A stretch of DNA of 64,000 nt from assembly GCA_964532425.1 (NCBI GenBank), contig CAZHIA010000005.1, forward strand, positions 66,772 through 130,771, in the 5' to 3' direction. Below are positions 2,625 to 19,093 of this stretch, piece by piece; the stretch's first letter is position 1, and each line of letters opens with the position of its first letter. The DNA comes from an uncultured Candidatus Saccharibacteria bacterium. Its GTDB lineage: Bacteria; Patescibacteriota; Doudnabacteria; UBA920. The translations under genes were made by a program, and so were the position numbers. Below the pieces are notes generated by a model. It had not been told where the DNA came from, did no database searches, and saw only the letters and a list, made by a program, of their open reading frames with translations.

Positions 2625-4691
<2,067 letters not shown>

Positions 4692-4929: not shown

Positions 4930-6108
4930 CTACCTTAACTCCGCTTGATAGGTTTCCGCAGTCTGTTTGTACAGCTCATTTTGCAATGGCTCAACTTCTT
5001 CTGCCGTGAGAGTTCGTTCCGGGCTGCGGTAAATGACCCGGTAGGTGTAGCTCATACGGTCAGGTCCGAATTTGCCATCGTTTTCGTATTTATCAAGAAG
5101 CTCTACCTGTTCGACCAGGTCACCGCCTATGTGGCGGATGAGGTCAAAATAGTTATTGGGCACGAAGTCCTTTTTTACGATGAACGAAATGTCGCGAATT
5201 ACTGGCGGGAATTTGCTGACCTCGACGAATTTCTTGCCCATGTGCAGCTGTTTGGTCACCCGAGGGTCCTCACTCCAGAGCAGGCGGATATCCGGCAGAC
5301 TCATGCTGACTATGGCCAGGCGCTCCAGGCCAAAACCGAATGCCCACCCCGTGTAATTGGAAGAATCGACGCCAAGTTTTTCCAAGACTGATCCCTTGAC
5401 CACGCCGCAGCCGACGACTTCGACCCAATTGCCTTCTATTTCTACTTCCATTTCCAGGGAAGGGTCTGTATACGGGAACGTGTCGGGATTGAGACGGTAT
5501 TTTACCTCAGGCCCGAAAACAGCTTTGGCAATGGCTCCCAGAGCCTCTTCCAGGTCCTGTTGGCCCATGGTCTTCATGGCTTTCGGCACTAGGTACCAGC
5601 CATCAATTTGATGGAAGACATTCATGTGCTTGCGGTCTATTTCATCCTTGCGATAGACTTTGCCGAAACTGAACGAACCGACGGGTTGATTGTCCGCCAT
5701 GCGCTGTTTGACTGCTTCGTTCTGCAGATAGTAATACCACATAACGGTCGTGTGCGTCCGCAGGATATTGCTGTCGTCGACATAGTAGGTATCGGATTTG
5801 CTGCGTGCCGGATGGTCGGCAGGAAAATCGAACAGGTCAAAGCTGATATCAGCCGGAACAATCTCCGGAGTTTTGATAATATCGAGATCCTTAAAGTAGT
5901 CGCTTGCAAGAATCTTTTCGACGATTTCGGCGATAGGGCTGCCCGGGGTGCGCGAAAGATCGGGCATAGCAAGATACCGCCGGATGCGCTGAGCTTCGAA
6001 ATCCGTGCGCTTTTCGAGTTCTATTCTTAAACGCTGTTCCTCTTCCGTTGAAATGATGATTTCTGTTCTCATAAAGTATTCAAATTTACTTAATACATCC
6101 GGCGTCAT
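4930..6108 (-). CDS. pheS: phenylalanine--tRNA ligase alpha subunit
   Basis: Class II aaRS motifs: FPYTDPSLEMEVEI (motif 2 region) and GWAFGFGLERLAIV (motif 3). 392 aa. The alternative internal start MRTEII is at 6072. Confidence 0.9.
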   Translation of the reverse strand: MTPDVLSKFEYFMRTEIIISTEEEQRLRIELEKRTDFEAQRIRRYLAMPDLSRTPGSPIAEIVEKILASDYFKDLDIIKTPEIVPADISFDLFDFPADHPARSKSDTYYVDDSNILRTHTTVMWYYYLQNEAVKQRMADNQPVGSFSFGKVYRKDEIDRKHMNVFHQIDGWYLVPKAMKTMGQQDLEEALGAIAKAVFGPEVKYRLNPDTFPYTDPSLEMEVEIEGNWVEVVGCGVVKGSVLEKLGVDSSNYTGWAFGFGLERLAIVSMSLPDIRLLWSEDPRVTKQLHMGKKFVEVSKFPPVIRDISFIVKKDFVPNNYFDLIRHIGGDLVEQVELLDKYENDGKFGPDRMSYTYRVIYRSPERTLTAEEVEPLQNELYKQTAETYQAELR

Positions 6109-6212
6109 CCTGAACCCGACTGCAGCGGAGAGTGAAGCATCTCTTAAACTACTGGTTTAAGGGATTCTTCGTCACTCGGATGCACTCGCTCCTCAGAATG
6201 ACGCCGGATATG
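6098..6212. mobile_element. Roughly 110-nt palindromic element with terminal inverted repeats (atccggcgtcatcctga ... tcagaatgacgccggat), copy A.
   Basis: Near-perfect 17-bp TIRs. The right half matches the copy at 11217-11330 (40 of 43 nt). Its left TIR overlaps the annotated pheS start codon (ATGACGCCGGAT). Confidence 0.55.
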
Positions 6213-6243
6213 GTAGTATTTTACTTAACTTCACTTATCGCTG

Positions 6244-6699
6244 TCAATTTTGTTCAATCATCCCCGGCTCAAACTGGTTCCCCGGCTTGGTATCTGGTTT
6301 GAGTATCATTATCCCCTTCCCTGGCTCGCTGGAGAGTCCAAGCTCGAAGGCCGCGCAGATCATACCTTGGCTTTCCACACCGCGGATCTTGGCTTTCTCA
6401 AGGACAAACGGCTCATGGGCCTCGCTATGGATGTTCTGCGGGATCTGGGCACCGGGCAGGGCCAGGGCCACCATGTCTCCGACTTCAAAGTTAAAGGCGC
6501 CACAGACAACCGGGTATATTTCTTTTTCACCATCCGTCAATTGAACGACCTGCAGCCGGTCGGCATTGGGATGCTTTTCTATAGCTAAAACTCGGGCTGT
6601 AATAATGCCAGAGTAGTTATTTGTTGGGTTTTTAGCCGGTGTGTTTTTGAATAGTCTTTGAAAAAATGAAAATAATTCCATAAAATTGATAATTAACAA
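6244..6699 (-). CDS. stand-alone tRNA-binding (Myf / EMAP / PheT N-terminal-like) domain protein
   Basis: GIITARVLAIEKHPNADRLQVVQLTDGEKEIYPVVCGAFNFEVGDMVALALPGAQIP...KIRGVESQGMICAAFELGL matches the N-terminal tRNA-binding domain of PheT and CsaA/Trbp111. The rest of pheT is not at this locus. Confidence 0.75.
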   Translation of the reverse strand: MLIINFMELFSFFQRLFKNTPAKNPTNNYSGIITARVLAIEKHPNADRLQVVQLTDGEKEIYPVVCGAFNFEVGDMVALALPGAQIPQNIHSEAHEPFVLEKAKIRGVESQGMICAAFELGLSSEPGKGIMILKPDTKPGNQFEPGMIEQN

Positions 6700-6833
6700 A
6701 TTTACAAATTAAATACTCTGTATTTGCTCCTCGGCTCGGATGTTGATTGTATTCAACATCTCTCGCCTTACGTCGCAAATAAAACTTACTGCGGCCCAAT
6801 TTGTTAATTTGTAAATTATTAAATTTGTTAATA
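6689..6833. repeat. Nested inverted repeats in the intergenic region.
   Basis: Outer arms ttaacaaatttacaaattaa (6692-6711) and ttaatttgtaaatt (6808-6821). Inner hairpin gatgttga-ttgtat-tcaacatc at about 6737-6760. Confidence 0.4.
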
Positions 6834-8396
6834 GTACCTGCATTCTTCCTGGTTGCACAGGTAGCCGGTGTAGCCGGTCGGGGCAGCGCTCAGCAAGGTC
6901 TTGAGGGTAAACGTATCAAAAGTGGCAGAAACTTTGTACTCATAATCGACACCGGAAAGAGGATCTTTCGGTATGGCAGAAATGTACTGAGGCACTAAGT
7001 CAGTCTTATACTTTTGTTCCGTAGGAAATACATATTCCTGATCGCCGGCAATATTATTGTTGCTGTACAGCAGAAGTGCCGTACGAATGCTCTCCATGTC
7101 AGATTTGCGCTGGTCGTCGTACATAGCAGCCTCAGTCTCTGTCTTATACCGTATGCCGTCCGAAGCTTTGAGCTTGATCAGCTGGTTTTGAGTCTCGCTG
7201 TAGAAAGTGAGGACATAATCCGTACCGTCATCGTTCGGCGTGTAGGTATACACGAATTCATTCTTGTTTATCGGGTCAACGGGATTCATAGCTACCCTCA
7301 GATATGGTTTTATAGACGAGACCATTTCGCTAAAATTCGTCGTCTTTGGGTATGTATCAAGGTCCTTCTTGTAATTCGTAAGGGCAATTGCAATGTTTTT
7401 CATGGTGGTCGTACGCTGTGCGTCACGATCTTGTTTTGCTTCCGGAGAACCGTCTGCAGCAGCTGATGAAGCGGAGTTTGTCGTCTCCGGGGTCGTGGAA
7501 GGAACAGCAGGAACTGTTGTACTGGTGGAAGTCGCTGGAGTGGCAGGGGTGAATTTATAGGTGGTTATTAAGACCTCACCCAGCGCGGTTATGGTCGGCT
7601 GGTGAAGATTAAACTGCTTCATCTTGGCCGTTATGGTATCAATCTCGGCCTGGGTCATGGCATTGCCCGTTTGCAAGCTATAACCGCCCTTGATAAAGTC
7701 GGAATCGGAATATTTTGGGTCTCCGGCAGAGTGACTATTGAGCGGATCGCTCATAAAGACATGAAATTCGTCGCCATCAGCAAGGCCATCCTGGTCTGAG
7801 TCCGGATTATTTGGATCGGTCTTCATTTTAAATTCTTCCTGATTGCTCAACCCGTCACGGTCCGCATCGGCATCCGGCCCGCACTGGTTCGGGCTTTGGC
7901 AGTTGTCTGTGTTGAAATATTTCACCAGCCAGTCTTTCCATTCCTGGGTATTTTCCACGGAAGAAGGTTCAGTTGAGCTGGCCTGGCCCTGGTCGTTCCC
8001 TGGTTGCTCCTTATTTGGTTTGGGTGCATTCTCATTCAAAACAATATCGCTTTTTGAAAGCGATACTACAAATTTTTCATAGATAAAATAGCCGGCAGCA
8101 CCTGCAACCGCCAAAATGACAATTATGATAATCCCCCATTTCATGTATTTATTCATTGGTCCGCGTGGTGCCTGCGCCGCCGGCGGTTCTTGCTCGATTT
8201 TTACCACCGGACTGACAACATCCCCGGTCTTTTTTTGGCGAGGCATGACATTATAAAACAAATACTCCGGTTCGGCGGATGCTTGAATTTTCTGTTCCTG
8301 ATCAGGCTGTGTCGGCTGTTGATCCGGTTTATCTGCGGGTTTGACGGGTTGAAGGTTAGGATTCTGGGTATCCATATGAATAAGCGAACTCGGCAC
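6828..8396 (-). CDS. membrane-anchored extracellular protein with thrombospondin type-3-like Ca-binding repeats and two GspG-like pseudopilin globular domains
   Basis: One N-terminal TM (WGIIIIVILAVAGAAGYFIY). DxDxDG repeats (DADADRDGLSNQEEF, DPNNPDSDQDGLADGDEF). Two copies of the RxxD[IM]xxIxxALxxY...Y[PF] motif (RDAQRTTTMKNIAIALTNYKKDLDTYP, RKSDMESIRTALLLYSNNN) typical of GspG/pseudopilin cores. T/P/S-rich linker. Confidence 0.65.
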   Translation of the reverse strand: MPSSLIHMDTQNPNLQPVKPADKPDQQPTQPDQEQKIQASAEPEYLFYNVMPRQKKTGDVVSPVVKIEQEPPAAQAPRGPMNKYMKWGIIIIVILAVAGAAGYFIYEKFVVSLSKSDIVLNENAPKPNKEQPGNDQGQASSTEPSSVENTQEWKDWLVKYFNTDNCQSPNQCGPDADADRDGLSNQEEFKMKTDPNNPDSDQDGLADGDEFHVFMSDPLNSHSAGDPKYSDSDFIKGGYSLQTGNAMTQAEIDTITAKMKQFNLHQPTITALGEVLITTYKFTPATPATSTSTTVPAVPSTTPETTNSASSAAADGSPEAKQDRDAQRTTTMKNIAIALTNYKKDLDTYPKTTNFSEMVSSIKPYLRVAMNPVDPINKNEFVYTYTPNDDGTDYVLTFYSETQNQLIKLKASDGIRYKTETEAAMYDDQRKSDMESIRTALLLYSNNNIAGDQEYVFPTEQKYKTDLVPQYISAIPKDPLSGVDYEYKVSATFDTFTLKTLLSAAPTGYTGYLCNQEECRYY

Positions 8397-8417
8397 GCTT
8401 TTAAACTTTTTGTTTCT

Positions 8418-8813
8418 TTAAATTTTGAGATTAAAGAAGGCTTCGAGGCAGACGAGGAACATTATCAGTGTGGCTTCCACCCACCAGTACAAAAGACCTT
8501 GGGAAGATAAGATGATCGATGCTGTCAGCAATACAGCCAGGAGCAGGGCTTGGCGGAAACTGATACCGAAATTCAGGAGGAAGGCCGTGCGCGCTAAAGC
8601 TTGTCTGAATCCCAGTCCTACCAGCGTGGCCAGGCTGGTTACGAAGATGAAGACACTTGCATATAGAAATACGAAAGTAAGCGTGCTTGCTGTTTGCGGC
8701 TCTGTGTACGTCATAATTGCCCCTGTCGAGAAAGCCGCCAGGAACATACTCAGGAACAGATAGAACGTACTTTGTTTTGAAGATCTCAACATTTTGATTA
8801 TACCATAGATCAC
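8418..8813 (-). CDS. hypothetical multi-pass membrane protein
   Basis: Four hydrophobic segments. SD ggagtg upstream of the ATG at 8813. The overlapping ORF 8431-8823 in another frame is not protein-like. Confidence 0.5.
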   Translation of the reverse strand: MIYGIIKMLRSSKQSTFYLFLSMFLAAFSTGAIMTYTEPQTASTLTFVFLYASVFIFVTSLATLVGLGFRQALARTAFLLNFGISFRQALLLAVLLTASIILSSQGLLYWWVEATLIMFLVCLEAFFNLKI

Positions 8814-8859
8814 TGATTAACACTAATCACTCCCCTTACTGTCAGTGTGTATCAGTGCA

Positions 8860-11800
8860 TCATTCCAGATACTCAAATTCGCACCGGTGGTCCCTGGCTT
8901 TCTTATGCTCTTCCTTGAACAGGTCGTACTTTGTCGTATATGCGATCCGTTCAACAAGCTCCAAGAGCCGCTGTTTGAGATCGGTAATCTCTTTTTCCGG
9001 CGCGATCTCCTCTTCAATGAACGTATTATCTTGCAAGTACCAGTACTTCAAGCCGACGACGGTTTCTTTCAAGTATTCCTCGGCCGCCCATTGGTAAATA
9101 TAGAGCTGGTCTAAGTCCTTGCTCTTTTTCGGCGTCTGTCCGGTCTTGTAATCCAGGAGAATAATACCGTTTTGCACGCTGTCGGCACGGTCGATTTTAC
9201 CGGTAAATAGATACTCTCCCAGCTTCAGCTGGAAGAACTTCTCGATATATTTTGGCACGAATTTCGCCTGCAGGCTGGTCTCATAGAATGTGCCGAGCAT
9301 TTTCCTACCAAGCACGCGATATTCCTCTTTTTGTTCTTTTGTATCGTACCAGTCATCCACCCAATGCTTTTCATATAGTTCTTCCAGGAATTTCGCCGGG
9401 GGCAGCACCACCTCCGGTTTGCCGCCGAACAAGTCCTGCTGCGGCAGGTCGAGATTGGTTTTGTATAGTTTTAAATACTCTTCGAAAACTTTATGGATGG
9501 TCTGGCCGAAGCTTAAATGGCAGCTGCCGGCTACCGGTAGTTTGAGGTAATGATGATATTTGTATTTGAGCGGACAAGTTTCAAAATCGTTCAGCTGGGA
9601 ATAAGAATACTTGAGCGACGGCACATATATCTGCTTCCCCGGTTGCGCTGCGGGGCGGAACATGACTTTGCCGGTAGCCTGATTTACCCGGTCGCTGGGC
9701 ACCAAGCCGGTCTCGACCAAAAAGCTTGACGGCTTCTTGGCCCGGCTGCCGCCATAGTCCTTGGCCCAGGTCAAATAGAGATAGGTCTTGGCCCGCGTCA
9801 TGGCAACATAAAACAGCCGGCGTTCTTCCTGCAAATGGAAATCCCCTTCCGGAAGGATATCTTTGATCAGGGCTTCCGGAATCTCGATCGGATCGCTTTT
9901 TTCCCGCGTCGGAAACCGCTGGTCTACCATGCTGATGACAAAGACATAGTTGAATTCCAGGCCTTTGGAGCTGTGAACAGTCATGACTTTAACGCTTTCA
10001 GGACCAGCATTCGGATCGAATTTTATTTCACCTTCATTGCCGGCTTCCAGCTCCAAGTCCAGGGTGGCCAAAAAATTATGCATGCTTCGGTCAGTTTCTT
10101 CCTGCCCGAATTCTTCGATCTTTTTGTAGAATTGGTCTACCAGCTCGCGGTTTTCGGCGTTTTCCAGCGTGTCTTCGGAAATAACCTCTTCGATACCAAT
10201 ATCCTTCACAATACTCACGAACAGCTCAGCTGCATGTATGCGCCGGGCAGCATCGCTATGGGCATGGAGGCAATTAATAAGCCGTTCGATGCTTTTTCGC
10301 GACTCATCGCTGGTTTCCGGGAAGCTTTTCGCGTCTTTTAACGCTTCATAGAGCGTTAAGGCCTTTTTATGCCCGTGGGCTAGAATATGAGCGCGCTCGT
10401 CATGGGGAATGAAAAACTTCGGCAGCGTTAGAACGCGGTAAAGGCTGTGCGAATCATGAAAATTATCGAGCAAGCGGAGATAGGACAGTATATCAACAAT
10501 GATCTGTTTTTTGTATAAACCGCGATTAGCCACGAACGTGTACGGTATATTGCGGCTGCCCAGGACGGGCAGCAGCTCGTCAGCTGATGCGTTTCGCCTG
10601 AGCAGAATAGCAAAATCATTCCAGCTGCAGGAGGGTTCTGAATTCTTCAACTCCATAATCTTATTGGCTACGCAATTCAGTTCCGAACTTAAATCTTGCG
10701 CCTCCAGGACCTCGATAACTCCTTCCTGGGGGATGTTTGCGTGGAGTTTTTTTGACAAGTCTAACTTGGTCTCCAGCCGGTCCGGATTGTTTTTTTGGAT
10801 GAAATCATACGCCAGATCAAGGATATTTTGGCTGCTGCGATAATTTTCGACCAGCGTGATCTCAGACAGTTCCGGGAAATCCTCTTTCAGCTTCAAGATA
10901 TTGGAAACGCTCGCGCCGCGGAATTTGTAAATGGACTGGTCATCGTCGCCAACTACGGTCAAGTTTTGGCGCACCCCAGCCAGCAACTTCACCAATTCGT
11001 ACTGGGCATAGTTCGTATCTTGAAATTCATCGACAAGGATATATTTGAACTTATCCTGATAATATTTGAGAATCTTCGGCCGCTTTTTGAATAATGCCAG
11101 CGTGTAGTTGATAAGGTCGGCAAAATCCAAATAATTGTGGTCGATGAGTAATTTTTGGTAGGTGTGGTACGCACCAGCCAGCTCTTCAATGCGGGCGATC
11201 TCCACAGGATCAACGTCAACCGGCGTCATCCTGACGTTGAGTGCATCCGAAACGGAAGGATCTTTTTTGCTGACCCGAGATTCTTCGCCACTCGGATGCA
11301 CTCGCGACTCAGAATGACGCCTTTTGGAAGGAGGATTGATTTTTGTCTGAGCAGGCTGATCTGTTTGCAATCTAAGACCTTCGGCAAAACTCAAATAGTC
11401 TTCTGGCCCTATAAGTTCGTCCTTGCAGCGGCTGAAGTGAGAGAGCATCGCGTCGATGAACTTGGCAGGATTGCCCAGCGGCCGGTAATAGCTCAATTTA
11501 AATTTAGACAGGTTTTTGTAAACCAGGATCCATTGTCTGGTTGAGTCGAGGAGCGTGAAATCGTTGGGAATGCCGATGTCGAGGGCATGCATTTTTAAAA
11601 TACGCTCGCAAAAACCGTGGAAGGTCGCGATCCATGTGTCGTACGCCCCGATGGGCAACAGCAAGTCCACGCGCTCCTGCATCTCACCGGCCGCTTTTTC
11701 GGTAAACGTTAGGGCGGCTATTTCATCCGGCCGGGCAGCGCCGGTTTCCAGCAAATAGGCTATGCGCCGCGTAATAACGGTTGTTTTTCCGGTGCCTGCT

Positions 11801-11940
11801 CCTGCAACGATAAGTAACGGACCTTCGGCATGTTTAACCGCCGTAAGTTGCTGCTGGTTCAATCCTTCAAATAACCGGTTGTCCGTTGGCAGAGCCTGCT
11901 GTTCGGCAATATTGGGAGTTTTTGTTGCTTGTTTGACCAT
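8860..11940 (-). CDS. UvrD/PcrA-family SF1 helicase with a C-terminal PD-(D/E)xK (AddB/Cas4-like) nuclease domain
   Basis: Motif I LIVAGAGTGKTTVITRR and motif II ILVDEFQDTNYAQYEL. The C-terminal domain has YSYSQLNDFETCPLKYKYHHYLK ... GKIDRADSVQNGIILLDYKTGQ. 1026 aa, including an in-frame roughly 37-aa insertion encoded by repeat copy B. Confidence 0.85.
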   Translation of the reverse strand: MVKQATKTPNIAEQQALPTDNRLFEGLNQQQLTAVKHAEGPLLIVAGAGTGKTTVITRRIAYLLETGAARPDEIAALTFTEKAAGEMQERVDLLLPIGAYDTWIATFHGFCERILKMHALDIGIPNDFTLLDSTRQWILVYKNLSKFKLSYYRPLGNPAKFIDAMLSHFSRCKDELIGPEDYLSFAEGLRLQTDQPAQTKINPPSKRRHSESRVHPSGEESRVSKKDPSVSDALNVRMTPVDVDPVEIARIEELAGAYHTYQKLLIDHNYLDFADLINYTLALFKKRPKILKYYQDKFKYILVDEFQDTNYAQYELVKLLAGVRQNLTVVGDDDQSIYKFRGASVSNILKLKEDFPELSEITLVENYRSSQNILDLAYDFIQKNNPDRLETKLDLSKKLHANIPQEGVIEVLEAQDLSSELNCVANKIMELKNSEPSCSWNDFAILLRRNASADELLPVLGSRNIPYTFVANRGLYKKQIIVDILSYLRLLDNFHDSHSLYRVLTLPKFFIPHDERAHILAHGHKKALTLYEALKDAKSFPETSDESRKSIERLINCLHAHSDAARRIHAAELFVSIVKDIGIEEVISEDTLENAENRELVDQFYKKIEEFGQEETDRSMHNFLATLDLELEAGNEGEIKFDPNAGPESVKVMTVHSSKGLEFNYVFVISMVDQRFPTREKSDPIEIPEALIKDILPEGDFHLQEERRLFYVAMTRAKTYLYLTWAKDYGGSRAKKPSSFLVETGLVPSDRVNQATGKVMFRPAAQPGKQIYVPSLKYSYSQLNDFETCPLKYKYHHYLKLPVAGSCHLSFGQTIHKVFEEYLKLYKTNLDLPQQDLFGGKPEVVLPPAKFLEELYEKHWVDDWYDTKEQKEEYRVLGRKMLGTFYETSLQAKFVPKYIEKFFQLKLGEYLFTGKIDRADSVQNGIILLDYKTGQTPKKSKDLDQLYIYQWAAEEYLKETVVGLKYWYLQDNTFIEEEIAPEKEITDLKQRLLELVERIAYTTKYDLFKEEHKKARDHRCEFEYLE
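11217..11330. mobile_element. Roughly 110-nt TIR palindromic element, copy B, inserted in frame inside the helicase CDS.
   Basis: TIRs ggcgtcatcctga / tcagaatgacgcc, with an internal inverted repeat gagtgcatccga / tcggatgcactc. On the coding strand it encodes KRRHSESRVHPSGEESRVSKKDPSVSDALNVRMTP with no stop. Confidence 0.55.
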
Positions 11941-11975
11941 GAATGCGCAATTGATTTATTTCGATTTGCAGAATT

Positions 11976-12437
11976 TCAGTGCTTCCCGTTACTGATAAAA
12001 CTCGTCCACTGCTTCCAGAGGTCCTCGCCTTCATCTTTAAAGGAGGACCAGAAAGCCGAAGGGTTGACTATCTTGACCCCTTGAAATTCTTCCAGTTTTA
12101 GCAGGGCATTATCGCTGCTCACCAGAAAGTCCGCCCGTGCTTCCACCGCGCTTTCGAGGATCTTATTGTCTTCGGGATCCTCGACAATGCGAATCTGGCG
12201 GCGATTGACCACCCAGTGGATCTTGGCAAACAGATCATCCAGCTGGTGGCGGTAATCATCATTGTCGATGAGCTGGGAAGCTATAAGTTTATTCTCCTGC
12301 AGGGTCTGGCGATTCGCGTAGGCCTCTATCTCTCCTGCCAGCACCGCATCGATGATCTTCTTTTCGTATGAGTAGTCGTCTTTAAAGCCGTTAATGAGAA
12401 CGTTGGTATCCAGGACTATCTTGGTAACATTTGACAT
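11976..12437 (-). CDS. PIN-domain protein (VapC-like putative ribonuclease)
   Basis: IVLDTNVLINGF ... DPEDNKILESAVEARADFLVSSD gives the PIN acidic residue pattern. The start codon lies inside a heptamer repeat block (MSNV = atg tca aat gtt). Confidence 0.8.
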   Translation of the reverse strand: MSNVTKIVLDTNVLINGFKDDYSYEKKIIDAVLAGEIEAYANRQTLQENKLIASQLIDNDDYRHQLDDLFAKIHWVVNRRQIRIVEDPEDNKILESAVEARADFLVSSDNALLKLEEFQGVKIVNPSAFWSSFKDEGEDLWKQWTSFISNGKH

Positions 12438-12457
12438 GTGACATTTGACCTTTGACC
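12426..12457. repeat. Heptamer repeat block (tttgaca, tgtgaca, tttgacc, tttgacc), left flank of the 4HB gene.
   Basis: 7-nt periodic TTTGAC units between the 4HB stop and the PIN start. Confidence 0.6.
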
Positions 12458-12465
12458 GCTTCCGA

Positions 12466-12852
12466 TTACTTCGTAGGGTTTTTTAATAGTACATCTCTAA
12501 ACGCAGTGAGTTGATCAGCAAGGTTTGCTCCTCTACTTAAAAATTCCTTGTGTTCTTCTTCATTAATATAATGATTATCTAAAGCGATATCTAAACAAGC
12601 AATAACTTCATTCAAAGAGGTATGCGATCTATTAAGAAATAGGGCGAAATCCTTATCGGTCCCTCTGTCGGATCCTTCTGCTATGTTAAGCAAAATCGAA
12701 TCCGCTGCGCGATACAGTTGGTTTGTTAAACTAAACAGTTCATATTGAGGAAAGTGGATCCTTGCTAGCTGTTTGACATCTATGACATATTTTCGGGCAT
12801 CCTGATAAACCGGAAAATTTCTAAATCGGAATTTTTTATCAGTGTTTCCCAT
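12466..12852 (-). CDS. four-helix-bundle protein (TIGR02436 / formerly 23S rRNA intervening-sequence protein family)
   Basis: FPVYQDARKYVIDV ... LTNQLYRAADSILLNIAEGS ... SLNEVIACLDIAL are family hallmarks. Confidence 0.8.
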   Translation of the reverse strand: MGNTDKKFRFRNFPVYQDARKYVIDVKQLARIHFPQYELFSLTNQLYRAADSILLNIAEGSDRGTDKDFALFLNRSHTSLNEVIACLDIALDNHYINEEEHKEFLSRGANLADQLTAFRDVLLKNPTK

Positions 12853-12885
12853 GTCAAATGTTAAAGGTTAATGGTCAAATGTTAT
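12853..12885. repeat. Heptamer repeat block in the opposite orientation (gtcaaat, gttaaag, gttaatg, gtcaaat), right flank of the 4HB gene.
   Basis: It abuts the 4HB ATG (aacatttgacATG on the coding strand). There is no SD. Confidence 0.6.
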
Positions 12886-13400
12886 CTTCTATTATTCTTT
12901 ATCGGCATTAAAAATTTTCGGGGATTATCGTCCAGGTCAATGAAGAAGTCCGTGAGTTCCTTGATTTTGCCGCTGCAGGACTTACCGAAAGCCACGGTTT
13001 CCGTAAGCTGGCCGGTCATCTGGAGGTATTCGAGCAGCGGGATAAAGTCCCCGTCGCCACTGCAGAGCACCACGACATCTAATTTGTTCATAAGCTTGAT
13101 GATGTCCATGGCAATGCCGACATCCCAGTCCCCTTTTTGGTGCCCGCCGGCGAAGGTTTGCAACTCCTTCATCTTTACTTCAAAACCAGCTTTCTCCAAG
13201 GCTTCAAAGAATGTATGTTCTTCGGGCATGTCGGCTTTGACCACATACGCGATGGCGCGGATCAGTCTGCGCCCGCCCACGGCCGAATCCAAAATCTCGT
13301 TAAATTTGACTCGTGCGTTATAAATATTACGCGCGCTGTAATAGAGGTTCTGAACATCCACGAATACGCCAACGCGCTGGTCGGGGTTTCTCATAGACAT
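12882..13400 (-). CDS. NYN-domain protein (LabA/YacP-like putative RNase)
   Basis: RVGVFVDVQNLYY ... DVGIAMDIIKL ... VVVLCSGDGDFIPLLEYL matches PF01936. Confidence 0.8.
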   Translation of the reverse strand: MSMRNPDQRVGVFVDVQNLYYSARNIYNARVKFNEILDSAVGGRRLIRAIAYVVKADMPEEHTFFEALEKAGFEVKMKELQTFAGGHQKGDWDVGIAMDIIKLMNKLDVVVLCSGDGDFIPLLEYLQMTGQLTETVAFGKSCSGKIKELTDFFIDLDDNPRKFLMPIKNNRR

Positions 13401-13428
13401 GAATTTATAAAATAATGATTATGTTTAA

Positions 13429-13929
13429 TTATTGACACAGGAATGGCTTAATGTAAGTCGAAATATCGTCACCACTTCCTACTTCGTCAATGCCATTCGG
13501 ACCGGCACTAAAAACCTGGTCGTTTCTGCAATCCGAAACTCCTGATTCGCGCTCATTCTCATCAATAAGGTACGGGGTTCCCCAGGGATCTTTGGGTGAT
13601 TGGGAGAATCCCAGCCTTTGCCAGGATGTTGCCAAGGCAGCCAAGCCAGCGGCATTGGCATTGACGAGCCCTGTGCCCCGGAAGACACAGTCAGAGCAAC
13701 CGCTTCCAGTAATTTGCAGCACGGTATTGTTATTGGTGGTTCTGGATAACTCGATCTGGGTAGCTATTTGGTGGAAATCAGCGTCAACTCTCGCGTACTT
13801 CGCCTTCTGCCGGGTATTATTCATAGCTACCAGCACAATGCTGGACAGTAACCCAATGACAGAAATAACGACCAACAACTCTATTAAGGTGAATCCGCGG
13901 CTATTTAGTTGAAACCGTACAATATCCAT
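13429..13929 (-). CDS. type IV pilin / pseudopilin (prepilin-type N-terminal cleavage/methylation domain)
   Basis: N-terminus MDIVRFQLNSRGFTLIELLVVISVIGLL is a class III signal peptide with G^FTLIE. Cys pair near the C-terminus. Confidence 0.8.
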   Translation of the reverse strand: MDIVRFQLNSRGFTLIELLVVISVIGLLSSIVLVAMNNTRQKAKYARVDADFHQIATQIELSRTTNNNTVLQITGSGCSDCVFRGTGLVNANAAGLAALATSWQRLGFSQSPKDPWGTPYLIDENERESGVSDCRNDQVFSAGPNGIDEVGSGDDISTYIKPFLCQ

Positions 13930-13946
13930 CTTCCATGCTTAGTAAG

Positions 13947-14972
13947 TTACTCCAAAAGTTGTTGCGGCTCCTTCACATGCGCATCCTCAGCCTCTAGCTC
14001 CAGATTCGCGGCATTTTGGATGCTGCCCCGCAATCGAGTGAAATCATTGGTAACAGTGCCCATGGTGTTGCCGGCGTTTTTGATATGCGTACCGAGCACA
14101 TCAAGATTTTTAGCAAATTTGTCGCTTTCGGTCTTAATGCCGGAGATCATCTTTAATATTTCCTGGGCTTTCTTGTTGATCTCCTGGCCGCGCAGGGACA
14201 ACATGATGTTCCGGAGGTAAATGTACATAGTATTCGGACTGACCGGAATGACCGCCTTACCGCGGCAGTAGTCGATAATATCCTCGGCTTCGATAACTTC
14301 CTGGTAAATGCCTTCGCTCGGAACGTACATTAAAGCAAAATCAAACGTTCCTTCCTGCGGGAGGATATATTTCTTATGAATCTCGTCCACGCGTTTTTTG
14401 ACGTCTTTTAAGAATGCCTTCTTCAGCGCGTCCGAAGCTTCATCAGTCTGGGCTTCCTTATAGAGACGGAAATTTTCCAGGGAAAACTTGCTATCGATGG
14501 ACAAGATGGTATTCCCGACGAATATGCAGGCATCCACGGTCTCCCCATTCTTGAAGCGGTACTGAATGCGGTAGCTGTTCTTGGGCAGGATCTGGGAAAG
14601 CATGTTTTCCAGCATCTCTTCCCCGAAATTGCCGCGCATTTTTGGACTAGCCAGCGTCTCACTGAGTCTTCGAATATCGGGGCCAATTTGGGACACGCCG
14701 CCCAGCTCTTTTGACAAGGCGCCAATGACCCGGGCTGCGTTATCCAGGCGCTCGTTGATGGTTTTTTGCGTTTCTTGGATACGTTCATCCATATTCTCAC
14801 GGGTTTTTTCCGTCGACTGCTTGATCTCCTTCATCCATTCCATCATAACCTTGAGAGTGGTATCGTCTTGTGGAGCCTGCTGCGTTTTGCGCATTTGCGT
14901 GATCATGTAGACAGTCACACCCAGTCCCACAGCCAGGATCGCCAGCCCGATGATCAAAATTGTGTTTTCCAT
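13947..14972 (-). CDS. rmuC: DNA recombination protein RmuC
   Basis: N-terminal TM, coiled-coil, KMRGNFGEEMLENMLSQILP and C-terminal nuclease-like core, typical of RmuC. Confidence 0.8.
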   Translation of the reverse strand: MENTILIIGLAILAVGLGVTVYMITQMRKTQQAPQDDTTLKVMMEWMKEIKQSTEKTRENMDERIQETQKTINERLDNAARVIGALSKELGGVSQIGPDIRRLSETLASPKMRGNFGEEMLENMLSQILPKNSYRIQYRFKNGETVDACIFVGNTILSIDSKFSLENFRLYKEAQTDEASDALKKAFLKDVKKRVDEIHKKYILPQEGTFDFALMYVPSEGIYQEVIEAEDIIDYCRGKAVIPVSPNTMYIYLRNIMLSLRGQEINKKAQEILKMISGIKTESDKFAKNLDVLGTHIKNAGNTMGTVTNDFTRLRGSIQNAANLELEAEDAHVKEPQQLLE

Positions 14973-15106
14973 ACAGTTTTGTTACTTGTTTCGTCCGTAT
15001 CGTATGTTCAAAGTATACCAAAAATGGCCTGTATTGCCAAAAAACGGCAGGCTGAGGACTGCCGGGCATCGAATCAGGCCCCTGATGGTCAAAACAGGAT
15101 CCTGAC

Positions 15107-15135
15107 TTGACAAATTAGCACTCTCGGGTATAGAC
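15107..15135 (+). promoter_or_regulatory. sigma70-like promoter (TTGACA-16-TATAGA) for hsp20
   Basis: ttgaca at 15107-15112. It overlaps the CIRCE element. Confidence 0.5.
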
Positions 15136-15141
15136 TGCTAA
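15115..15141 (+). promoter_or_regulatory. CIRCE operator (HrcA binding site)
   Basis: TTAGCACTC-N9-GACTGCTAA versus consensus TTAGCACTC-N9-GAGTGCTAA (1 mismatch). It sits between the promoter and the sHSP gene. Confidence 0.6.
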
Positions 15142-15239
15142 TACGTGAGGCAATAACGATAATTATAACGATAACTTAAAGACTTATAATCGTAATTGTT
15201 ATATTTATAGTTATGGTTATAAGTCAAGGAGAATAAAGC

Positions 15240-15650
15240 ATGCCATTTGATTTGATTCCCCGTTCTTTTTTCGGCCAATCCCGTCTGGGTAATTTTTTTG
15301 AGGACGAGGATTGGACCTCTTTTCTGCCCTCTTCCGGACTGACTGTTTCGGAAGATGATTTACATGTTTATGTAGAAGCCGCTGTCCCCGGTCTTGATCC
15401 GGACAAGGTGGAAGTCACATTCGATAAAGGTATTCTCTGGATCCGGGGCAGCCAGGAAGCCGAAGACACGCATGAGCCCAAAAAATATTACCGCAAAGCT
15501 TCGTCTTCCTTCTCCTACCGCGTAGCCATTCCCGGCGAAGTTGATGAATCCCAAGACCCGGAAGCGACGTGCAAGAACGGCATCATGAAAGTCTCGTTTG
15601 CAAAAAAGCCGGAAGTCCAGCCGAAGAAGATTAATGTAAGAAAAGAGTAA
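15240..15650 (+). CDS. Hsp20/alpha-crystallin family small heat-shock protein
   Basis: Alpha-crystallin domain: DLHVYVEAAVPGLDPDKVEVTFDKGILWIRG ... YRKASSSFSYRVAIPGEVD ... ATCKNGIMKVSFAKK. Confidence 0.85.
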   Translation: MPFDLIPRSFFGQSRLGNFFEDEDWTSFLPSSGLTVSEDDLHVYVEAAVPGLDPDKVEVTFDKGILWIRGSQEAEDTHEPKKYYRKASSSFSYRVAIPGEVDESQDPEATCKNGIMKVSFAKKPEVQPKKINVRKE

Positions 15651-15700
15651 AGACGCTGATAGAACACGGAACGCACGGCACCGCGGAAAAACGCGGAAAC

Positions 15701-15731
15701 AAAATTCCCTGGAAAATTTCCAGGGAATTTT
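15701..15731 (+). terminator. rho-independent terminator of hsp20
   Basis: Perfect hairpin aaaattccctgg-aaaattt-ccagggaatttt. Confidence 0.7.
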
Positions 15732-15809
15732 GATATAACAAAAAAATAAAAATCTGTTTTGTTGATGACGGAATCTTAAGAGTGAACCAGATATGCACAG
15801 CCTAAGCTC

Positions 15810-15838
15810 TTGTAGACAAAAAATTATTTTACTACAAT
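15810..15838 (+). promoter_or_regulatory. Candidate promoter TTGTAG-17-TACAAT for the PBP gene
   Basis: ttgtag at 15810-15815 and tacaat at 15833-15838. Confidence 0.4.
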
Positions 15839-15967
15839 GGGCTCAGAAGAGTAGCAAAGAATTTTTGTAACAGTAATTTAATTTCTTTCTTTGCGTCTCT
15901 GTAGGAAGAACGTTGTCTGATTACGATGTAACATCTTTTGAGTTAAAATAAAATCAAATCCGCTCCT

Positions 15968-18064
15968 ATGAATTTCTCGGCGCCAAAATCCCTTTCGCGT
16001 GCCAGCCAGCCTCTGCGCTGGTTTAGCATGTGGAAGGGATTTTTTGTTGCCCTGATACTCATTGGCACAATGTGTGGCTGGCTGGCTATCCGTTTCTACC
16101 GGAGCCTCCCGTCGGTTTCCGAGATTGGCAGCAAGAGAGCCGTTTCGTCTAAAATCCTGGACCGTAACGGAAACCTGCTCTACGAGATACACGGAGAGGC
16201 CAAGCGAACCCCTGTTGCATTAGCGGATATCTCCCCTCATCTTAGAGAGGCTACCATCACTGTTGAGGACAGAAAATTCTATTCACACCCTGGAATTGAG
16301 CTTCCCGCACTCATTCGAGCCTTTTGGAAGAACACGCAGGCTCACACAACCGTCCAAGGCGGAAGTACTATCACCCAGCAATTGGTCAAAAATACGCTAC
16401 TTTCCAATGAAAAAACCTATCAAAGGAAGCTCAAGGAGGCAGCTTTGGCTTTGAAGGTTGAACGCGAATATTCCAAGGATCAAATTTTGGAGATGTATTT
16501 AAATCAGATCCCCTATGGCCGCAATGCGTACGGCGCGGAAGCTGCCAGCCAAACGTATTTTGGCAAAGCCGCCAAAGATCTCGATCTGGCAGAAAGCGCC
16601 TATCTGGCCGCCCTGCCAAAAGCCCCCTCACTGTTTAGCCCGTTCGGGCCGAACCGCGATTACCTTGACCAGCGTAAAAACTATATTCTCGGCGAGATGA
16701 AAAAACTCGGGTATGTGACCGACAGCGAACTCAATGCGGCACGACAGGAGGCAGTGACATTCCGGCCAGCCAAAACTAAAATAGCAGCCCCCCACTTTGT
16801 GGAATATGTGCTTCAGGATCTGGAACAGCAGTATGGACGCGAATTTTTAGAAGAAGCCGGATGGAATGTTTACACAACCCTCGACTTGCCACTCCAGCAA
16901 CAGGCAGAACAGATCGTAAAGGAAGGAGCTGACAAAAACCGTGTGCGGGGAGCCTACAATGCCGCACTGGTCGCCATCGAACCAGCCACGGGAGAGATTA
17001 TAACCATGGTTGGCAGCCGCGATTACTTCGGCGATCCCGAACCACCCGGGTGCCGGCCAGGCGTCAATTGCCTGTTCGACCCGCAAACCAATATCGCTCT
17101 GGCAGAACGCCAACCGGGATCCAGCTTTAAGCCGTATACATACCTCACTGCTTTTTCTCCCGAGCACAAATTTACCCCGTCCAGCATGATTCTAGACAGC
17201 ACGACGAACTTTGCCGCGCCTGGTACTCGCGCCTATATTCCCCACGATTACGACGGCAAAGAACGAGGCTGGCTAACAATGAGAAAGGCTCTTTCTGGAA
17301 GTTTGAATATCCCGGCAGTGAGGACTTTGTCCATGGTTGGGGTTCAGAATGTAGTCGATACTGCCCATCATTTAGGAATCAATAGTCCCCTTTCAGGCTG
17401 CGGTCTATCGTTAACACTCGGTGCTTGCGAAGTCCGCTTGCTGGATCACGTGTACGCATATGCGGTAGTTGCCAATGGGGGTAAAAAAGCGCAGCTTCGG
17501 TCGGTACTCAAGATCAGTTCGGTAGACGGAAAATCTATCACAACCATTCCGGATCCGCCTCAGCAAGCAGTGAATGAAGAAGCCGTATACCTGGTTACGA
17601 ACGTCCTTTCGGATCCGACTGCACGCAATTTCATCTTTGGGTCGCATTCCCCGCTCACGCTACCCGACCGACCGGTAGCGGCCAAGACCGGTACAACTCA
17701 AAATTTCAAGGACGGCTGGACTATGGGGTATACGCCACAGCTGGCGGTCGGAGTCTGGGCCGGTAATAATGATGGCACACCGCTCAAATGGAAATCGGAT
17801 GGCGTGTTCGTCGCAGCGCCTATATGGCAGAAATTTATGATCGCCGCGCACCAGAATGTGCCGGTTGCCCAGTTTACCCGACCTTCCGGTATTGTCGAGC
17901 GGCCAGTTGACCCAAACACCGGACGGGTGGTATCAGACGATACTCCGGGATCTACCCGGGAAGTTTTTGCCAGCTATTCCGCTCCTGCTGAACATCTTTC
18001 TGCCAATCCCCAGCCCTGGAAGGTCACCATCCAAAATTTCCCCGATTCTCCTGCTCGGAATTAA
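15968..18064 (+). CDS. class A penicillin-binding protein (bifunctional glycosyltransferase/transpeptidase, PBP1A-type)
   Basis: GT51 motifs (EDRKFYSHPGIELPALIRAFWKN, GGSTITQQLVKN). Transpeptidase SxxK (GSSFKPY), SxN (SLN) and KTG (KTGTT). Confidence 0.9.
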   Translation: MNFSAPKSLSRASQPLRWFSMWKGFFVALILIGTMCGWLAIRFYRSLPSVSEIGSKRAVSSKILDRNGNLLYEIHGEAKRTPVALADISPHLREATITVEDRKFYSHPGIELPALIRAFWKNTQAHTTVQGGSTITQQLVKNTLLSNEKTYQRKLKEAALALKVEREYSKDQILEMYLNQIPYGRNAYGAEAASQTYFGKAAKDLDLAESAYLAALPKAPSLFSPFGPNRDYLDQRKNYILGEMKKLGYVTDSELNAARQEAVTFRPAKTKIAAPHFVEYVLQDLEQQYGREFLEEAGWNVYTTLDLPLQQQAEQIVKEGADKNRVRGAYNAALVAIEPATGEIITMVGSRDYFGDPEPPGCRPGVNCLFDPQTNIALAERQPGSSFKPYTYLTAFSPEHKFTPSSMILDSTTNFAAPGTRAYIPHDYDGKERGWLTMRKALSGSLNIPAVRTLSMVGVQNVVDTAHHLGINSPLSGCGLSLTLGACEVRLLDHVYAYAVVANGGKKAQLRSVLKISSVDGKSITTIPDPPQQAVNEEAVYLVTNVLSDPTARNFIFGSHSPLTLPDRPVAAKTGTTQNFKDGWTMGYTPQLAVGVWAGNNDGTPLKWKSDGVFVAAPIWQKFMIAAHQNVPVAQFTRPSGIVERPVDPNTGRVVSDDTPGSTREVFASYSAPAEHLSANPQPWKVTIQNFPDSPARN

Positions 18065-18092
18065 AACCCCTTGATGTTACATCAAGGGGTTT
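18064..18092. terminator. rho-independent terminator after the PBP gene
   Basis: aaaaccccttgatg-ttac-atcaaggggttt. Confidence 0.6.
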
Positions 18093-18108
18093 ATACTACT
18101 ACTCATTG

Positions 18109-18336
18109 TTACGTAATTTGAAGTTGCTGTTTAACTTTTTCCAGGTCGTTTTCTATTCTTCTTACCCATTCAATCGTAAATATCCGTTCCTGGTCAAGCC
18201 GCTTTAAGATAGCCATCGTTTCATCCTGATGTTTCAGATACTCCTCGCGAGTAATGAATCGTCCCATTTTTTCATCCAGACGGCCCATCTGTTCCTTAAT
18301 CTCGATAATGTGTTGAATTATTTTATCTTCGTTCAT
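18109..18336 (-). CDS. small coiled-coil hypothetical protein
   Basis: ATG at 18336 gives MNEDKIIQHIIEIKEQMGRLDEK.... The track start at 18387 is a TTG. No SD found. Confidence 0.35.
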   Translation of the reverse strand: MNEDKIIQHIIEIKEQMGRLDEKMGRFITREEYLKHQDETMAILKRLDQERIFTIEWVRRIENDLEKVKQQLQIT

Positions 18337-18451
18337 ATGCGTATATTTAGCTACCTCAATACTAGACGAAATAGGCAGGTGAGTCAAACAAAGGAATAAT
18401 ATTTATCTCGATAATTCCCATTAAAGAGATCCCCACCCCGCCTCACTATTG

Positions 18452-18478
18452 AAAAAAGCACCACCTAAAGGTGCTGCA
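18452..18478 (-). terminator. rho-independent terminator downstream of the tRNA cluster
   Basis: Minus-strand hairpin agcacc-tttagg-ggtgct followed by tttttt. Confidence 0.55.
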
Positions 18479-18486
18479 TTTTTCAA

Positions 18487-18563
18487 TGGCGGGGACGGCG
18501 GGGCTCGAACCCGTAACCTCTCGCGTGACAGGCGAGTGCTCTAACCAATTGAGCTACGCCCCC
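18487..18563 (-). tRNA. tRNA-Asp (GTC)
   Basis: GGGGGCGTAGCTCAATTGGTTAGAGCACTCGCCTGTCACGCGAGAGGTTACGGGTTCGAGCCCCGCCGTCCCCGCCA. Anticodon loop CTGTCAC, discriminator G73, encoded CCA. Confidence 0.9.
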
Positions 18564-18717
18564 GTATATTACGCTACTTTGGCCCTGAACCATTCCCCGC
18601 CTTCGGCAGATCAGGTACAAGGCATGAACCAGTCGCACAGCGTGCCGCCCACAAGAAACACTCACGAGCTTATGGCTGTGCCATGAACCGGAGCGAATCC
18701 GATGAGCGACTGGTTCA

Positions 18718-18794
18718 TGGTGCCGGAGAGAGGAATTGCACCTCTGACCTTGGGCTTATGAGTCCCACGCTCTAACTAACTGAGCTACTCCGGC
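18718..18794 (-). tRNA. tRNA-Met (CAT), elongator type. tRNA-Ile2 (lysidine) cannot be excluded.
   Basis: GCCGGAGTAGCTCAGTTAGTTAGAGCGTGGGACTCATAAGCCCAAGG...CTCCGGCACCA. Fully paired G1:C72. Anticodon loop CTCATAA. Confidence 0.85.
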
Positions 18795-18971
18795 CTGATT
18801 TTGCCAGTGTAGCCATTCATTTCTACGGCTGTTCAGCACAACGGTACAGCAGCCCGAATTTGCAGACTACATAAGCATTTTTTGATTTAAAAACCTGCTG
18901 GACAGCAGGAAAAGGCTGTCACGATAGGTATTTAATCAAGGCAGACTTCGATTTAAAATCAAAGGCTATCT

Positions 18972-19048
18972 TGGTTGCGGGACCCGGACTCGAACCGGGA
19001 ACCTCCAGGTTATGAGCCTGGCGAGCTGCCAAATTGCTCTATCCCGCG
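18972..19048 (-). tRNA. initiator tRNA-fMet (CAT)
   Basis: CGCGGGATAGAGCAATTTGGCAGCTCGCCAGGCTCATAACCTGGAGGTTCCCGGTTCGAGTCCGGGTCCCGCAACCA. C1xA72 mismatch. 5' and 3' ends are near-identical to E. coli tRNA-fMet. Confidence 0.9.
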
Positions 19049-19064
19049 ATAGTAGAACTCACTC

Positions 19065-19093
19065 ATTATAAAGCATATATATAAATAAAGCAA
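19065..19093 (-). promoter_or_regulatory. Candidate promoter (TTGCTT-17-TATAAT) for the tRNA cluster
   Basis: Minus-strand TATAAT is the reverse complement of attata at 19065-19070. TTGCTT is the reverse complement of 19088-19093. Confidence 0.4.

Follow-up and report, generated by a model that had tools for sequence, protein, structure and literature searches.

Four-Helix-Bundle Genes Bracketed by Inverted Heptamer Arrays: A Candidate Intervening-Sequence-Type Cassette in a Patescibacterial mRNA Operon

Introduction

What is a gene of a family known from intervening sequences (IVSs) of rRNA genes doing within a protein-coding operon, enclosed on either side by an array of tandem heptamers? 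The question is raised by a small gene for a four-helix-bundle (4HB) protein that lies between a NYN-domain gene and a PIN-domain gene in a 64,000-nucleotide stretch of DNA (here called the window) from an uncultured Candidatus Saccharibacteria bacterium (GTDB: Patescibacteriota, Doudnabacteria, UBA920; assembly GCA_964532425.1, contig CAZHIA010000005.1, forward-strand positions 66,772 to 130,771). We analyzed the gene, its two repeat arrays, and related loci in other genomes, and we hold with moderate confidence that the feature is an IVS-type cassette in an mRNA operon, the counterpart of the 4HB-encoding IVSs of rRNA genes, and that its arms pair in the transcript. The cassette is probably self-contained and mobile.

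Several parts of this picture are already known. The IVS of Coxiella 23S rRNA carries three to four tandem GACAGAT heptamers just before the ATG of its S23p gene and is closed by a terminal stem of 28 bp, which RNase III cleaves (PMC4990558). Non-intron insertions in the rRNA genes of Candidate Phyla Radiation (CPR) bacteria encode 23S_rRNA_IVP and GIY-YIG proteins (PMC11270868), and 4HB genes have also been found inside cas operons (PMC3936711). Intergenic heptamer arrays of the TAACTGA type, found in Beggiatoaceae, cyanobacteria, and Bacteroidetes, comprise two to six units, mostly in forward orientation, and end before start codons; they are direct repeats only, save for one inverted case, and were described with neither a mechanism nor a link to 4HB genes (PMC4679880). 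An incomplete literature search, which may have missed an earlier report, yielded no description of 4HB genes generally bracketed by inverted 7- or 8-nt arrays, of co-variation between repeat and protein clade, of an operon-embedded, non-rRNA form of the cassette, of a slot common to 4HB, GxxExxY, and GIY-YIG cassettes, or of the in-frame spread of arrays into essential genes.

Results

Layout of the cassette

Read in transcript sense, the NYN-domain gene (12882–13400, minus strand; Pfam NYN, E = 1.6e-30), which ends AGA TAA, is followed by a 5' arm (12853–12885, minus strand; GATAACA TTTGACC ATTAACC TTTAACA TTTGAC), by the 4HB gene from ATG to TAA (12466–12852, minus strand; 128 aa, TIGR02436/PF05635, 23S_rRNA_IVP), by the spacer tcggaagc, and by a 3' arm (12423–12457, minus strand; GGTCAAA GGTCAAA TGTCACA TGTCAAA TGTTACC), which overlaps the start of the PIN_3-domain gene (11976–12437, minus strand; E = 2.4e-18). 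The NYN and PIN genes, upstream and downstream host genes respectively, lie outside the cassette. On the plus strand, the left block reads GGTAACA TTTGACA TGTGACA TTTGACC TTTGACC. Tandem Repeats Finder reported the left block at 12427–12456 (period 7, 4.3 copies, 86% matches) and the right block at 12856–12884 (period 7, 4.1 copies, 72% matches), and a repeat search returned the two blocks as an inverted pair with 32-nt arms that are 78% complementary and separated by 396 nt. The cassette is about 460 bp long, with about four heptamers of the unit TTTGACN in each array, and it has the terminal inverted repeats, able to form an enclosing stem, that characterize an IVS.

The arms meet the surrounding codons closely. 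The inner end of the 5' arm, with four units, directly abuts the ATG of the 4HB gene; the sequence before this ATG is CCTTTAACATTTGAC, in which a purine-rich Shine-Dalgarno motif is absent. At the other end of the same arm, the NYN stop codon TAA (12884–12882) is shared with the outer end of the right block (TAA-CATTTGAC). The first in-frame ATG of the PIN gene (12437–12435) lies inside the left block, in the last-but-one unit of the 3' arm, and the N-terminal PIN codons MSNV come from that arm. An earlier reading of the window, made from its letters and open reading frames (ORFs) and here called the sequence-only reading, had described a 4HB gene bracketed by two inverted heptamer blocks, with the PIN start inside the left block and the right block abutting the 4HB ATG without a Shine-Dalgarno motif; inspection of the sequence, Tandem Repeats Finder, and the inverted-pair search all bear this description out.

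The motif TTTGACNTTTGAC (allowing up to two mismatches) has 34 matches in the window, compared with 7.2 ± 2.9 in shuffled sequences (maximum 14). The cassette termini are AACATTTGAC ... GTCAAATGTT, and the same termini are found on four short hairpins in the window that contain no ORF.

The local operon consists of RmuC, a pilin-like gene, NYN, 4HB, PIN, and a UvrD/PD-(D/E)XK helicase, and all genes of the cassette region are on the minus strand. A promoter scan placed the best-positioned promoter-like site for this operon upstream of RmuC (15040–15012) and found none just upstream of the 4HB start. We had considered a promoter belonging to the 4HB gene itself, as the TTGACA-like units resemble −35 boxes, and discarded it when the scan gave no site there. 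The cassette is not in an rRNA helix: it lies between NYN and PIN, and the window contains no rRNA.

The 4HB protein

The encoded protein matches PF05635 (E = 1.3e-26; 93.3 bits against a curated cut-off of 33.8) and TIGR02436 (E = 5e-25; 87.8 bits against a cut-off of 24), and its sequence matches XCC0516 (PDB 2GSC; E = 1.3e-8). An AlphaFold2 model of the monomer (pLDDT 95.6) has four long helices, and in Foldseek comparisons it resembled 2gsc (TM score 0.81–0.94, rmsd 1.1–1.3) and 2rld (TM score 0.72–0.86); by model and comparison, the protein has the up-down four-helix-bundle fold of XCC0516 and BT_0352. The PDB entry 2gsc holds five chains. The helix-2 motif R-x3-S-x3-N-x2-E that has been quoted for the 4HB family (PMC3936711) corresponds to R48, S52, N56, and E59, which are invariant in 25 sequences. 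The homologues of the protein are annotated as Patescibacteria.

Inverted arrays around 4HB genes in other genomes

We scanned species-representative genomes with the 4HB alignment and obtained 80 loci at 39–66% identity, drawn from Patescibacteria classes, Omnitrophota, Bacteroidota, Ignavibacteriota, Binatia, Thermodesulfobacteriota, and others. A scan with the 4HB alignment found no relatives on viral contigs. Inspection by eye showed that in most of the loci the 4HB gene is preceded by a tandem array and followed by the reverse complement of that array; the units are lineage-specific (for example TTGACAN, GAGAAACT, GAAGAACN, ATGACNA, TAGCAGAT, GAGTAGTT, and GGCCATA).

We then compared 82 4HB genes with 210 other genes of the same loci by lag-match counts, which replaced a +1/−2 Kadane array score that was too harsh on degenerate units and whose random-placement controls could hit arrays. 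The median number of period-7/8 matches per 21 positions was 16 upstream of 4HB genes and 15 downstream, compared with 10 on either side of the other genes. An inverted complementarity score of at least 10 was reached by 73% of the 4HB genes and by 2.9% of the other genes (Mann-Whitney p for 4HB genes against other genes, 1e-20 to 1e-27). About two thirds of flanks had a best period of 7 (or 14), and about a fifth had one of 8. Among 49 well-defined cassettes, the two arms had equal periods in 47 (7/7 in 31, 8/8 in 14, 6/6 in 1, and 9/9 in 1), the median number of units per arm was 4.5 and 4.3, and the array ended no more than 5 nt from the ATG in 23.

The repeats also follow the protein. Mapped on the 4HB protein tree, the repeat period requires 3 changes, compared with 12.2 when shuffled (p ≤ 0.0005); a single 4HB clade, spanning CPR bacteria and Omnitrophota, makes up the A-rich 8-mer class; and paralogues within single genomes have different units (L063 and L069; L029 and L074). 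As period tracks the protein tree and the units of paralogues differ, the arms travel with the gene as one unit.

The genomic contexts are varied and mostly co-directional. The upstream neighbor has the same orientation as the 4HB gene in 70 of 74 cases and the downstream neighbor in 59 of 69, and the arms fill the spacers, which measure about 58 and 41 nt. Seven of the 80 cassettes (about 9%) lie between two co-directional tRNA genes (L061, L068, L077, L087, L030, L075, and L086); in the first four of these (about 2360–2990), the flanking genes are tRNA-Thr(GGT/TGT) and tRNA-Tyr(GTA). rRNA genes harbor two of the 80 (L083 within a 23S gene, L082 within the 5' part of a 16S gene), and the unit in L083 is of the TTGACA/TTAACA type, as in the window cassette. 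The statement in the sequence-only reading that the family is otherwise known from 23S rRNA IVSs is in this respect imprecise, as rRNA genes hold so small a share of the sampled cassettes.

One locus of the survey has an unusual arrangement. In L020 (Paceibacterota, 2860–5060), four pilin-like genes come after the 4HB cassette; GTCAAA arrays before each of them encode the prepilin leader (e.g., MSKVKSQTVKGQKSIVNCQKG|FTLVELL), and three of the four are themselves followed by TTTGAC arrays.

Syntenic relatives and constraint on protein and arms

The order NYN-4HB-PIN-helicase is found at the same position in three independent relatives (L001, L002-5, and L006-9), with 4HB proteins that are 71–72% identical. 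Each retains AACA(TTTGACN)4 immediately before the 4HB ATG and (NGTCAAA)3-4TGTT after the 4HB stop, continuing into the PIN start. A 4HB gene at this position without flanking repeats, which would have told against the bracketed arrangement, was thus not found among these relatives.

For a comparison of constraint we used four cassettes, those of the window, L001, L002, and L006. Their 4HB genes align without indels, with nonsynonymous divergence (dN) of 0.13–0.23 and saturated synonymous divergence (dS). Four-fold degenerate sites in the 4HB gene are 11–33% identical, which is random, whereas the noncoding arms are 68–88% identical. This conservation of the arms, in the face of randomized four-fold sites and low dN, indicates that both the protein and the arms are under constraint, and the conservation of the arms concerns the sequence of the unit itself, beyond mere ability to pair. 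Where it is present, the cassette is old.

In the predicted fold of the cassette RNA, the outer 14 bp of the arms pair in both the minimum free energy and the centroid structures (z = −2.6).

The slot between NYN and PIN

Scanning metagenomes with NYN, we obtained 65 loci with NYN proteins 75–91% identical to that of the window, and in none of the 65 does a 4HB gene lie between NYN and PIN. Six of them (L090, L103, L121, L122, L127, and L117) have no repeats, and their NYN stop directly adjoins or overlaps the PIN start (e.g., TAATG); this arrangement supports the suggestion of the sequence-only reading that a discrete cassette sits between the two genes in the window. In many of the 65 loci, the slot is filled by a poorly conserved small ORF. 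It contains a GxxExxY protein (TIGR04256/PDDEXK_3) in L102 and L148, where the family was confirmed, and an apparent one in L098, judged from the N-terminal sequence alone of an ORF truncated at 48 aa; L147 has a GIY-YIG protein, likewise confirmed. The GxxExxY gene of L102 has inverted repeats of its own on either side, themselves internally periodic, with a similar but less clear arrangement in L098, and a GxxExxY gene elsewhere in L002 (2260–2679) is bracketed by repeats of this kind too. The cassette architecture is therefore probably not limited to 4HB cargo.

In a PIN tree, loci with an empty slot and loci with a GxxExxY or GIY-YIG gene branch in between the four that carry a 4HB gene. 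The NYN-PIN slot is a cassette hot spot, set within a conserved unit of RmuC-NYN-(variable)-PIN-UvrD/PDDEXK helicase, and PIN and NYN are host genes, bystanders rather than partners of the cassette.

Arrays without a 4HB gene in the window

TTTGAC-type arrays are present at six further sites in the window, four in spacers and two in coding sequences. The four spacer arrays are hairpins on the minus strand: from the atpD stop to the atpC start (24310–24406; −26.5 kcal/mol, z = −3.0), downstream of atpB, with a predicted 4-nt loop (30054–30113; −27.8 kcal/mol, z = −5.5), between FtsW-like and DUF4012 genes, with TTTGAC/TTTAAC-type units (48072–48150; z = −2.8), and between ORF 58960–60288 and a TrwB-like ATPase gene (58890–58957; −28.2 kcal/mol, z = −5.4). 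They have inter-arm gaps of 4–45 nt and take up the full distance between the stop codon and the start codon. About nine further spacers, among the 41 of at least 40 nt, contain hairpins made of other units (periods 6–11), and arrays of some unit type are found in about a third of spacers of this length. None of the hairpins matched an Rfam family.

The sequence-only reading would have been undermined by blocks at nearly every intergenic region regardless of cargo. This is partly what we found, in the four spacers without cargo, the two coding sequences, and the spacers with other units; the association of 4HB genes with arrays nonetheless holds across phyla, and the cargo-less blocks therefore do not dissolve the finding.

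The two coding sequences contain single arrays in the GTCAAA orientation, in frame and on the minus strand. That in gyrB (2913–2954) encodes aa 579–592 in a variable linker; among GyrB homologues only P0122 has an array-encoded peptide, SNVKGQMSN, at the same linker, and the status of the gyrB array as an insertion is ambiguous, as the linker is rich in Lys and Glu, variable, and of similar length in homologues. That in murD (50282–50323) encodes KLNGQWSNVKGQMFL (aa 274–288), just after the P-loop, including the peptide NGQWSNVKGQM.

A complete hairpin of a different unit, AAGTTCA/TGAACTT, is present in frame in lepA (42381–44219). It spans 43948–44021 on the minus strand, encodes aa 67–91 of the GTPase domain, and extends the β-hairpin before DTPGH by about 15 aa. 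The closest LepA homologues, which are about 80% identical, have no insert, and the homologue P0241 (locus L155, about 800–900) has a TTTGAC-type hairpin at the same loop, which we confirmed in the DNA (ACC TTTGACA TTTGACA ATTTACA TGTGACC ... GTCAAAT GTCAAAG GTCAAAT GTCAAAG). From a loop that has no insert or different inserts in relatives, we conclude that array hairpins act like invasive palindromic insertions, and the 4HB cassette has the look of such a hairpin with an ORF in the loop: as in MITE- or REPIN-like elements, termini are common to ORF-bearing and ORF-less copies, and presence is polymorphic both at the NYN-PIN slot and at the lepA loop.

Further repeats were noted in the window. 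In the atp operon (23854–31032), nearly every spacer has a tandem-array hairpin or array, from several unit families, including arrays at 25830–25938 (a 9-mer), 26876–26910, and 28449–28543, and 11-mer arrays that flank atpF (28943–29032 and 29600–29685). A hairpin between MurJ and LepA (44222–44320) has the arms (ATGCAGATNTACAGAT)/(ATCTGTAG...) and folds with −31.4 kcal/mol (z = −6.3), and one in the spacer from RmuC to an Hsp20-like gene (15153–15221) has the form (ATAACG)n/(GTTATA)n. A direct repeat of about 110 nt, 74–93% identical, has one copy at 6096–6205, at the 5' end of ORF 4930–6108, and another at 11217–11321, in frame inside the UvrD-like helicase (aa about 207–241; ...RRHSESRVHPSGEESRVSKKDPSVSDALNVRMTP...); it may be another class of palindromic element inserted in coding sequence. 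The best matches to the GyrB and LepA fragments were nearly all short proteins of 130–290 aa, some on contigs longer than 100 kb, which could reflect word-search bias, alternative genetic codes, or truly split CPR genes.

Discussion

A candidate IVS in an mRNA operon

The Coxiella IVS, the insertions in CPR rRNA genes, and the 4HB genes in cas operons suggest that the element in the window is of the same kind as the classical 4HB IVS, but in an mRNA operon. We envisage that the cassette would be transcribed with the host operon, as its co-orientation, the arm-filled spacers, and the absence of a promoter-like site suggest, and that its arms would then pair, as predicted by folding, into a stem of about 14–30 bp that closes off the ORF. 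An RNase III-type enzyme could cut this stem, by analogy with Coxiella, freeing the cassette RNA and separating the flanking cistrons; such cutting would allow insertions to be tolerated in mRNA, tRNA, and rRNA transcripts alike. Finally, a pentameric 4HB protein may recognize the four to five units of each arm and so maintain, regulate, or propagate the cassette. Recognition of the repeat units by a 4HB oligomer is the most likely role of the protein, and it is suggested by the conservation of the units, their co-variation with the protein, the four to five units per arm, the pentameric XCC0516, and RNA-bound complexes of Avd, the accessory protein of diversity-generating retroelements (DGRs). 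As Avd is part of a ribonucleoprotein in the DGR complexes 8ube and 8ub8, nucleic-acid binding by 4HB proteins is plausible. The ORF-less arrays would be dispersed invasive palindromes and the cassette their ORF-bearing form, and one simple possibility is that they spread by gene conversion between cassette arms and the arms of ORF-less hairpins.

Several observations weigh against this reading. The cutting of the window cassette by RNase III would be an extrapolation from the Coxiella rRNA IVS, whose S23p protein is apparently not made (PMC4990558), and the binding of repeats by the 4HB protein is putative. The window arms are only 78% complementary, with a duplex energy of −21 kcal/mol compared with −34 to −46 kcal/mol in relatives. 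Mismatches between arms, read on the sense strand, comprise 66 G.U and 68 A.C pairs and thus show no wobble bias, and cognate arms (−30.4 kcal/mol) have no pairing advantage over non-cognate arms built from the same unit type (−30.2 kcal/mol), so that there is no RNA-specific covariation signal. These two tests neither favor nor rule against an RNA stem, and they imply that recognition of the repeats could equally occur at the DNA level. Profile and fold searches found no transposase or recombinase among the cargo, which consists only of the 4HB protein, itself without a match to an enzyme family. Comparison of the NYN-stop and PIN-start junctions with empty slots revealed no evident target-site duplication, with boundaries blurred by the codons that overlap the termini. 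As neither such a duplication nor a transposase or recombinase was found, mobility is read solely from presence and absence. All of the closest 4HB homologues whose context is known are syntenic, and the patchy presence could equally well reflect one old insertion plus later losses. Arrays of a cassette's own unit were found outside the cassette in only 7 of 44 other loci, a modest excess (20 compared with 6.3 in 206 kb).

Comparison with known systems

The rRNA IVSs (the S23p elements of Leptospira and Coxiella, and the CPR insertions) have the same ORF family and the same enclosing terminal inverted repeats as the cassette, that of Coxiella also has tandem heptamers directly before the ATG, and two of the 80 sampled cassettes, one of them with the unit type of the window (L083), are themselves in rRNA genes. 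Unlike the rRNA IVSs, the window cassette is flanked by protein-coding genes in an mRNA operon, and its arms touch or overlap a stop codon and a start codon. The ORF of the Coxiella IVS decays, whereas the window 4HB gene is under strong purifying selection, and excision by RNase III has been shown for Coxiella, whereas the window cassette is known from sequence and folding.

The RAYT/REPIN system, in which a single-copy gene has on its flanks the repeats that are dispersed through the genome, is similar in that a gene is bracketed by an inverted repeat that is also dispersed as hairpins in spacers, and in that gene and repeat type co-vary; it differs in that the 4HB protein is not an HUH/IS200-type transposase and has no known catalytic activity, and in that the window repeats are tandem arrays of 7–8-nt units rather than repetitive extragenic palindromic (REP) sequences. 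Rickettsia palindromic elements and Neisseria Correia elements are short, form hairpins, and are co-transcribed with host genes; the former insert in frame into coding sequences, and the hairpins of the latter are RNase III substrates. The in-frame arrays of lepA, gyrB, and murD recall the Rickettsia elements, but the window arms are tandem heptamers, some copies have an ORF in the loop, and there is no sequence relationship. The TAACTGA arrays (and the cyanobacterial STRR repeats) likewise consist of heptamers near start codons with a patchy distribution across phyla, whereas the window arrays come as inverted pairs that bracket a 4HB gene.

A broader proposal would be that 4HB proteins in general are sequence-specific partners of heptamer/octamer arrays, each a pentamer that reads four to five units, and that protein and arrays form a self-propagating or self-processing unit that also seeds or services ORF-less hairpins, much as in RAYT/REPIN systems. 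We offer this only tentatively and consider it rather doubtful.

Alternative explanations

The arrays might instead be host regulatory punctuation that acts in processing, stability, or translation, with the 4HB protein as a trans-acting, RNA-binding autoregulator and nothing selfish or mobile involved. Hairpins that span stop-to-start spacers in ATP synthase and cell-wall gene clusters would suit such a function, as would the strong constraint on the arms, the L020 arrays that lie at the 5' ends of four pilin genes in a row and encode their leader peptides, and the proposal that heptamers ending just before start codons regulate translation in Beggiatoaceae and cyanobacteria (PMC4679880). Regulation does not readily account for arrays in frame in gyrB and murD or for a full hairpin in lepA, at a loop that close relatives leave empty or fill differently. 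Nor does it explain why several relatives have nothing in the NYN-PIN slot, their NYN stop and PIN start overlapping, why the same slot takes nuclease-type cassettes (GIY-YIG and GxxExxY), or why identical cassettes occur within rRNA genes. We therefore consider this explanation unlikely.

If the blocks were a genome-specific, REP-like repeat, the 4HB gene might have come to lie between two copies by chance, and the presence of the same blocks at six other window sites, with some array in about a third of the longer spacers, gives this idea its appeal. It is largely refuted, and we give it very little credence: the association of 4HB genes with arrays, whose units are lineage-specific, extends over 82 loci from Patescibacteria, Omnitrophota, Bacteroidota, Ignavibacteriota, Binatia, and others; the unit follows the 4HB clade and not the host, to the extent that paralogues in the same genome differ in unit; and the arrays precisely abut the ATG and the stop codon.

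The sequence-only reading had also raised the possibility of a toxin-antitoxin-like or otherwise co-functional module of PIN, 4HB, and NYN, in which the 4HB protein would serve as antitoxin or adaptor. In favor of such a module, the three genes lie side by side in one orientation, L001, L002, and L006 have the trio too, and the PIN protein matches TIGR00305 ("putative toxin-antitoxin system toxin component"). A type II toxin-antitoxin system would have a stable partner adjacent to PIN, whereas the slot upstream of PIN contains nothing, other ORFs, GxxExxY, GIY-YIG, or 4HB among close relatives; the 65 NYN loci have no 4HB gene there, several have NYN and PIN directly adjacent, and 4HB cassettes at the 80 other loci have unrelated contexts and neighbors. 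For practical purposes, this interpretation is refuted.

Membership in a DGR, with the 4HB protein as Avd, is the least probable explanation and can be set aside: DGRs are common in CPR bacteria, and the fold belongs to the same four-helix-bundle superfamily as Avd and resembles 4dwl and 8ube (Foldseek TM score 0.6–0.74), but the window has no reverse transcriptase gene adjacent to the 4HB gene (the neighbors are NYN, PIN, RmuC, and helicase) and no template/variable repeat pair within 6000–20000, and sequence identity to Avd is about 10% (9–11%), compared with 30–31% to XCC0516.

Implications

If the broader proposal, of 4HB proteins as partners of the arrays, were correct, it would unify three sets of observations, namely the conserved ORF of rRNA IVSs, known since 1993, the intergenic heptamer arrays of cyanobacteria, Beggiatoaceae, and Bacteroidetes, and the 4HB, GxxExxY, and GIY-YIG mini-genes that often lie between unrelated genes. 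The function of the very large 4HB "IVS protein" family has resisted explanation for three decades; tandem heptamer arrays have likewise long been noted, in several phyla, without an explanation. Their occurrence together as one conserved cassette merges two questions into one hypothesis, in which the protein would bind its own repeats and the cassette would be excised from mRNA by RNase III. For annotation, the arrays can supply the start codons and N-termini of downstream genes as well as short inserts within the essential genes lepA, gyrB, and murD, and inference from gene neighborhoods, such as those of 4HB genes with PIN and NYN or with cas genes, is misleading where the gene belongs to a cassette.

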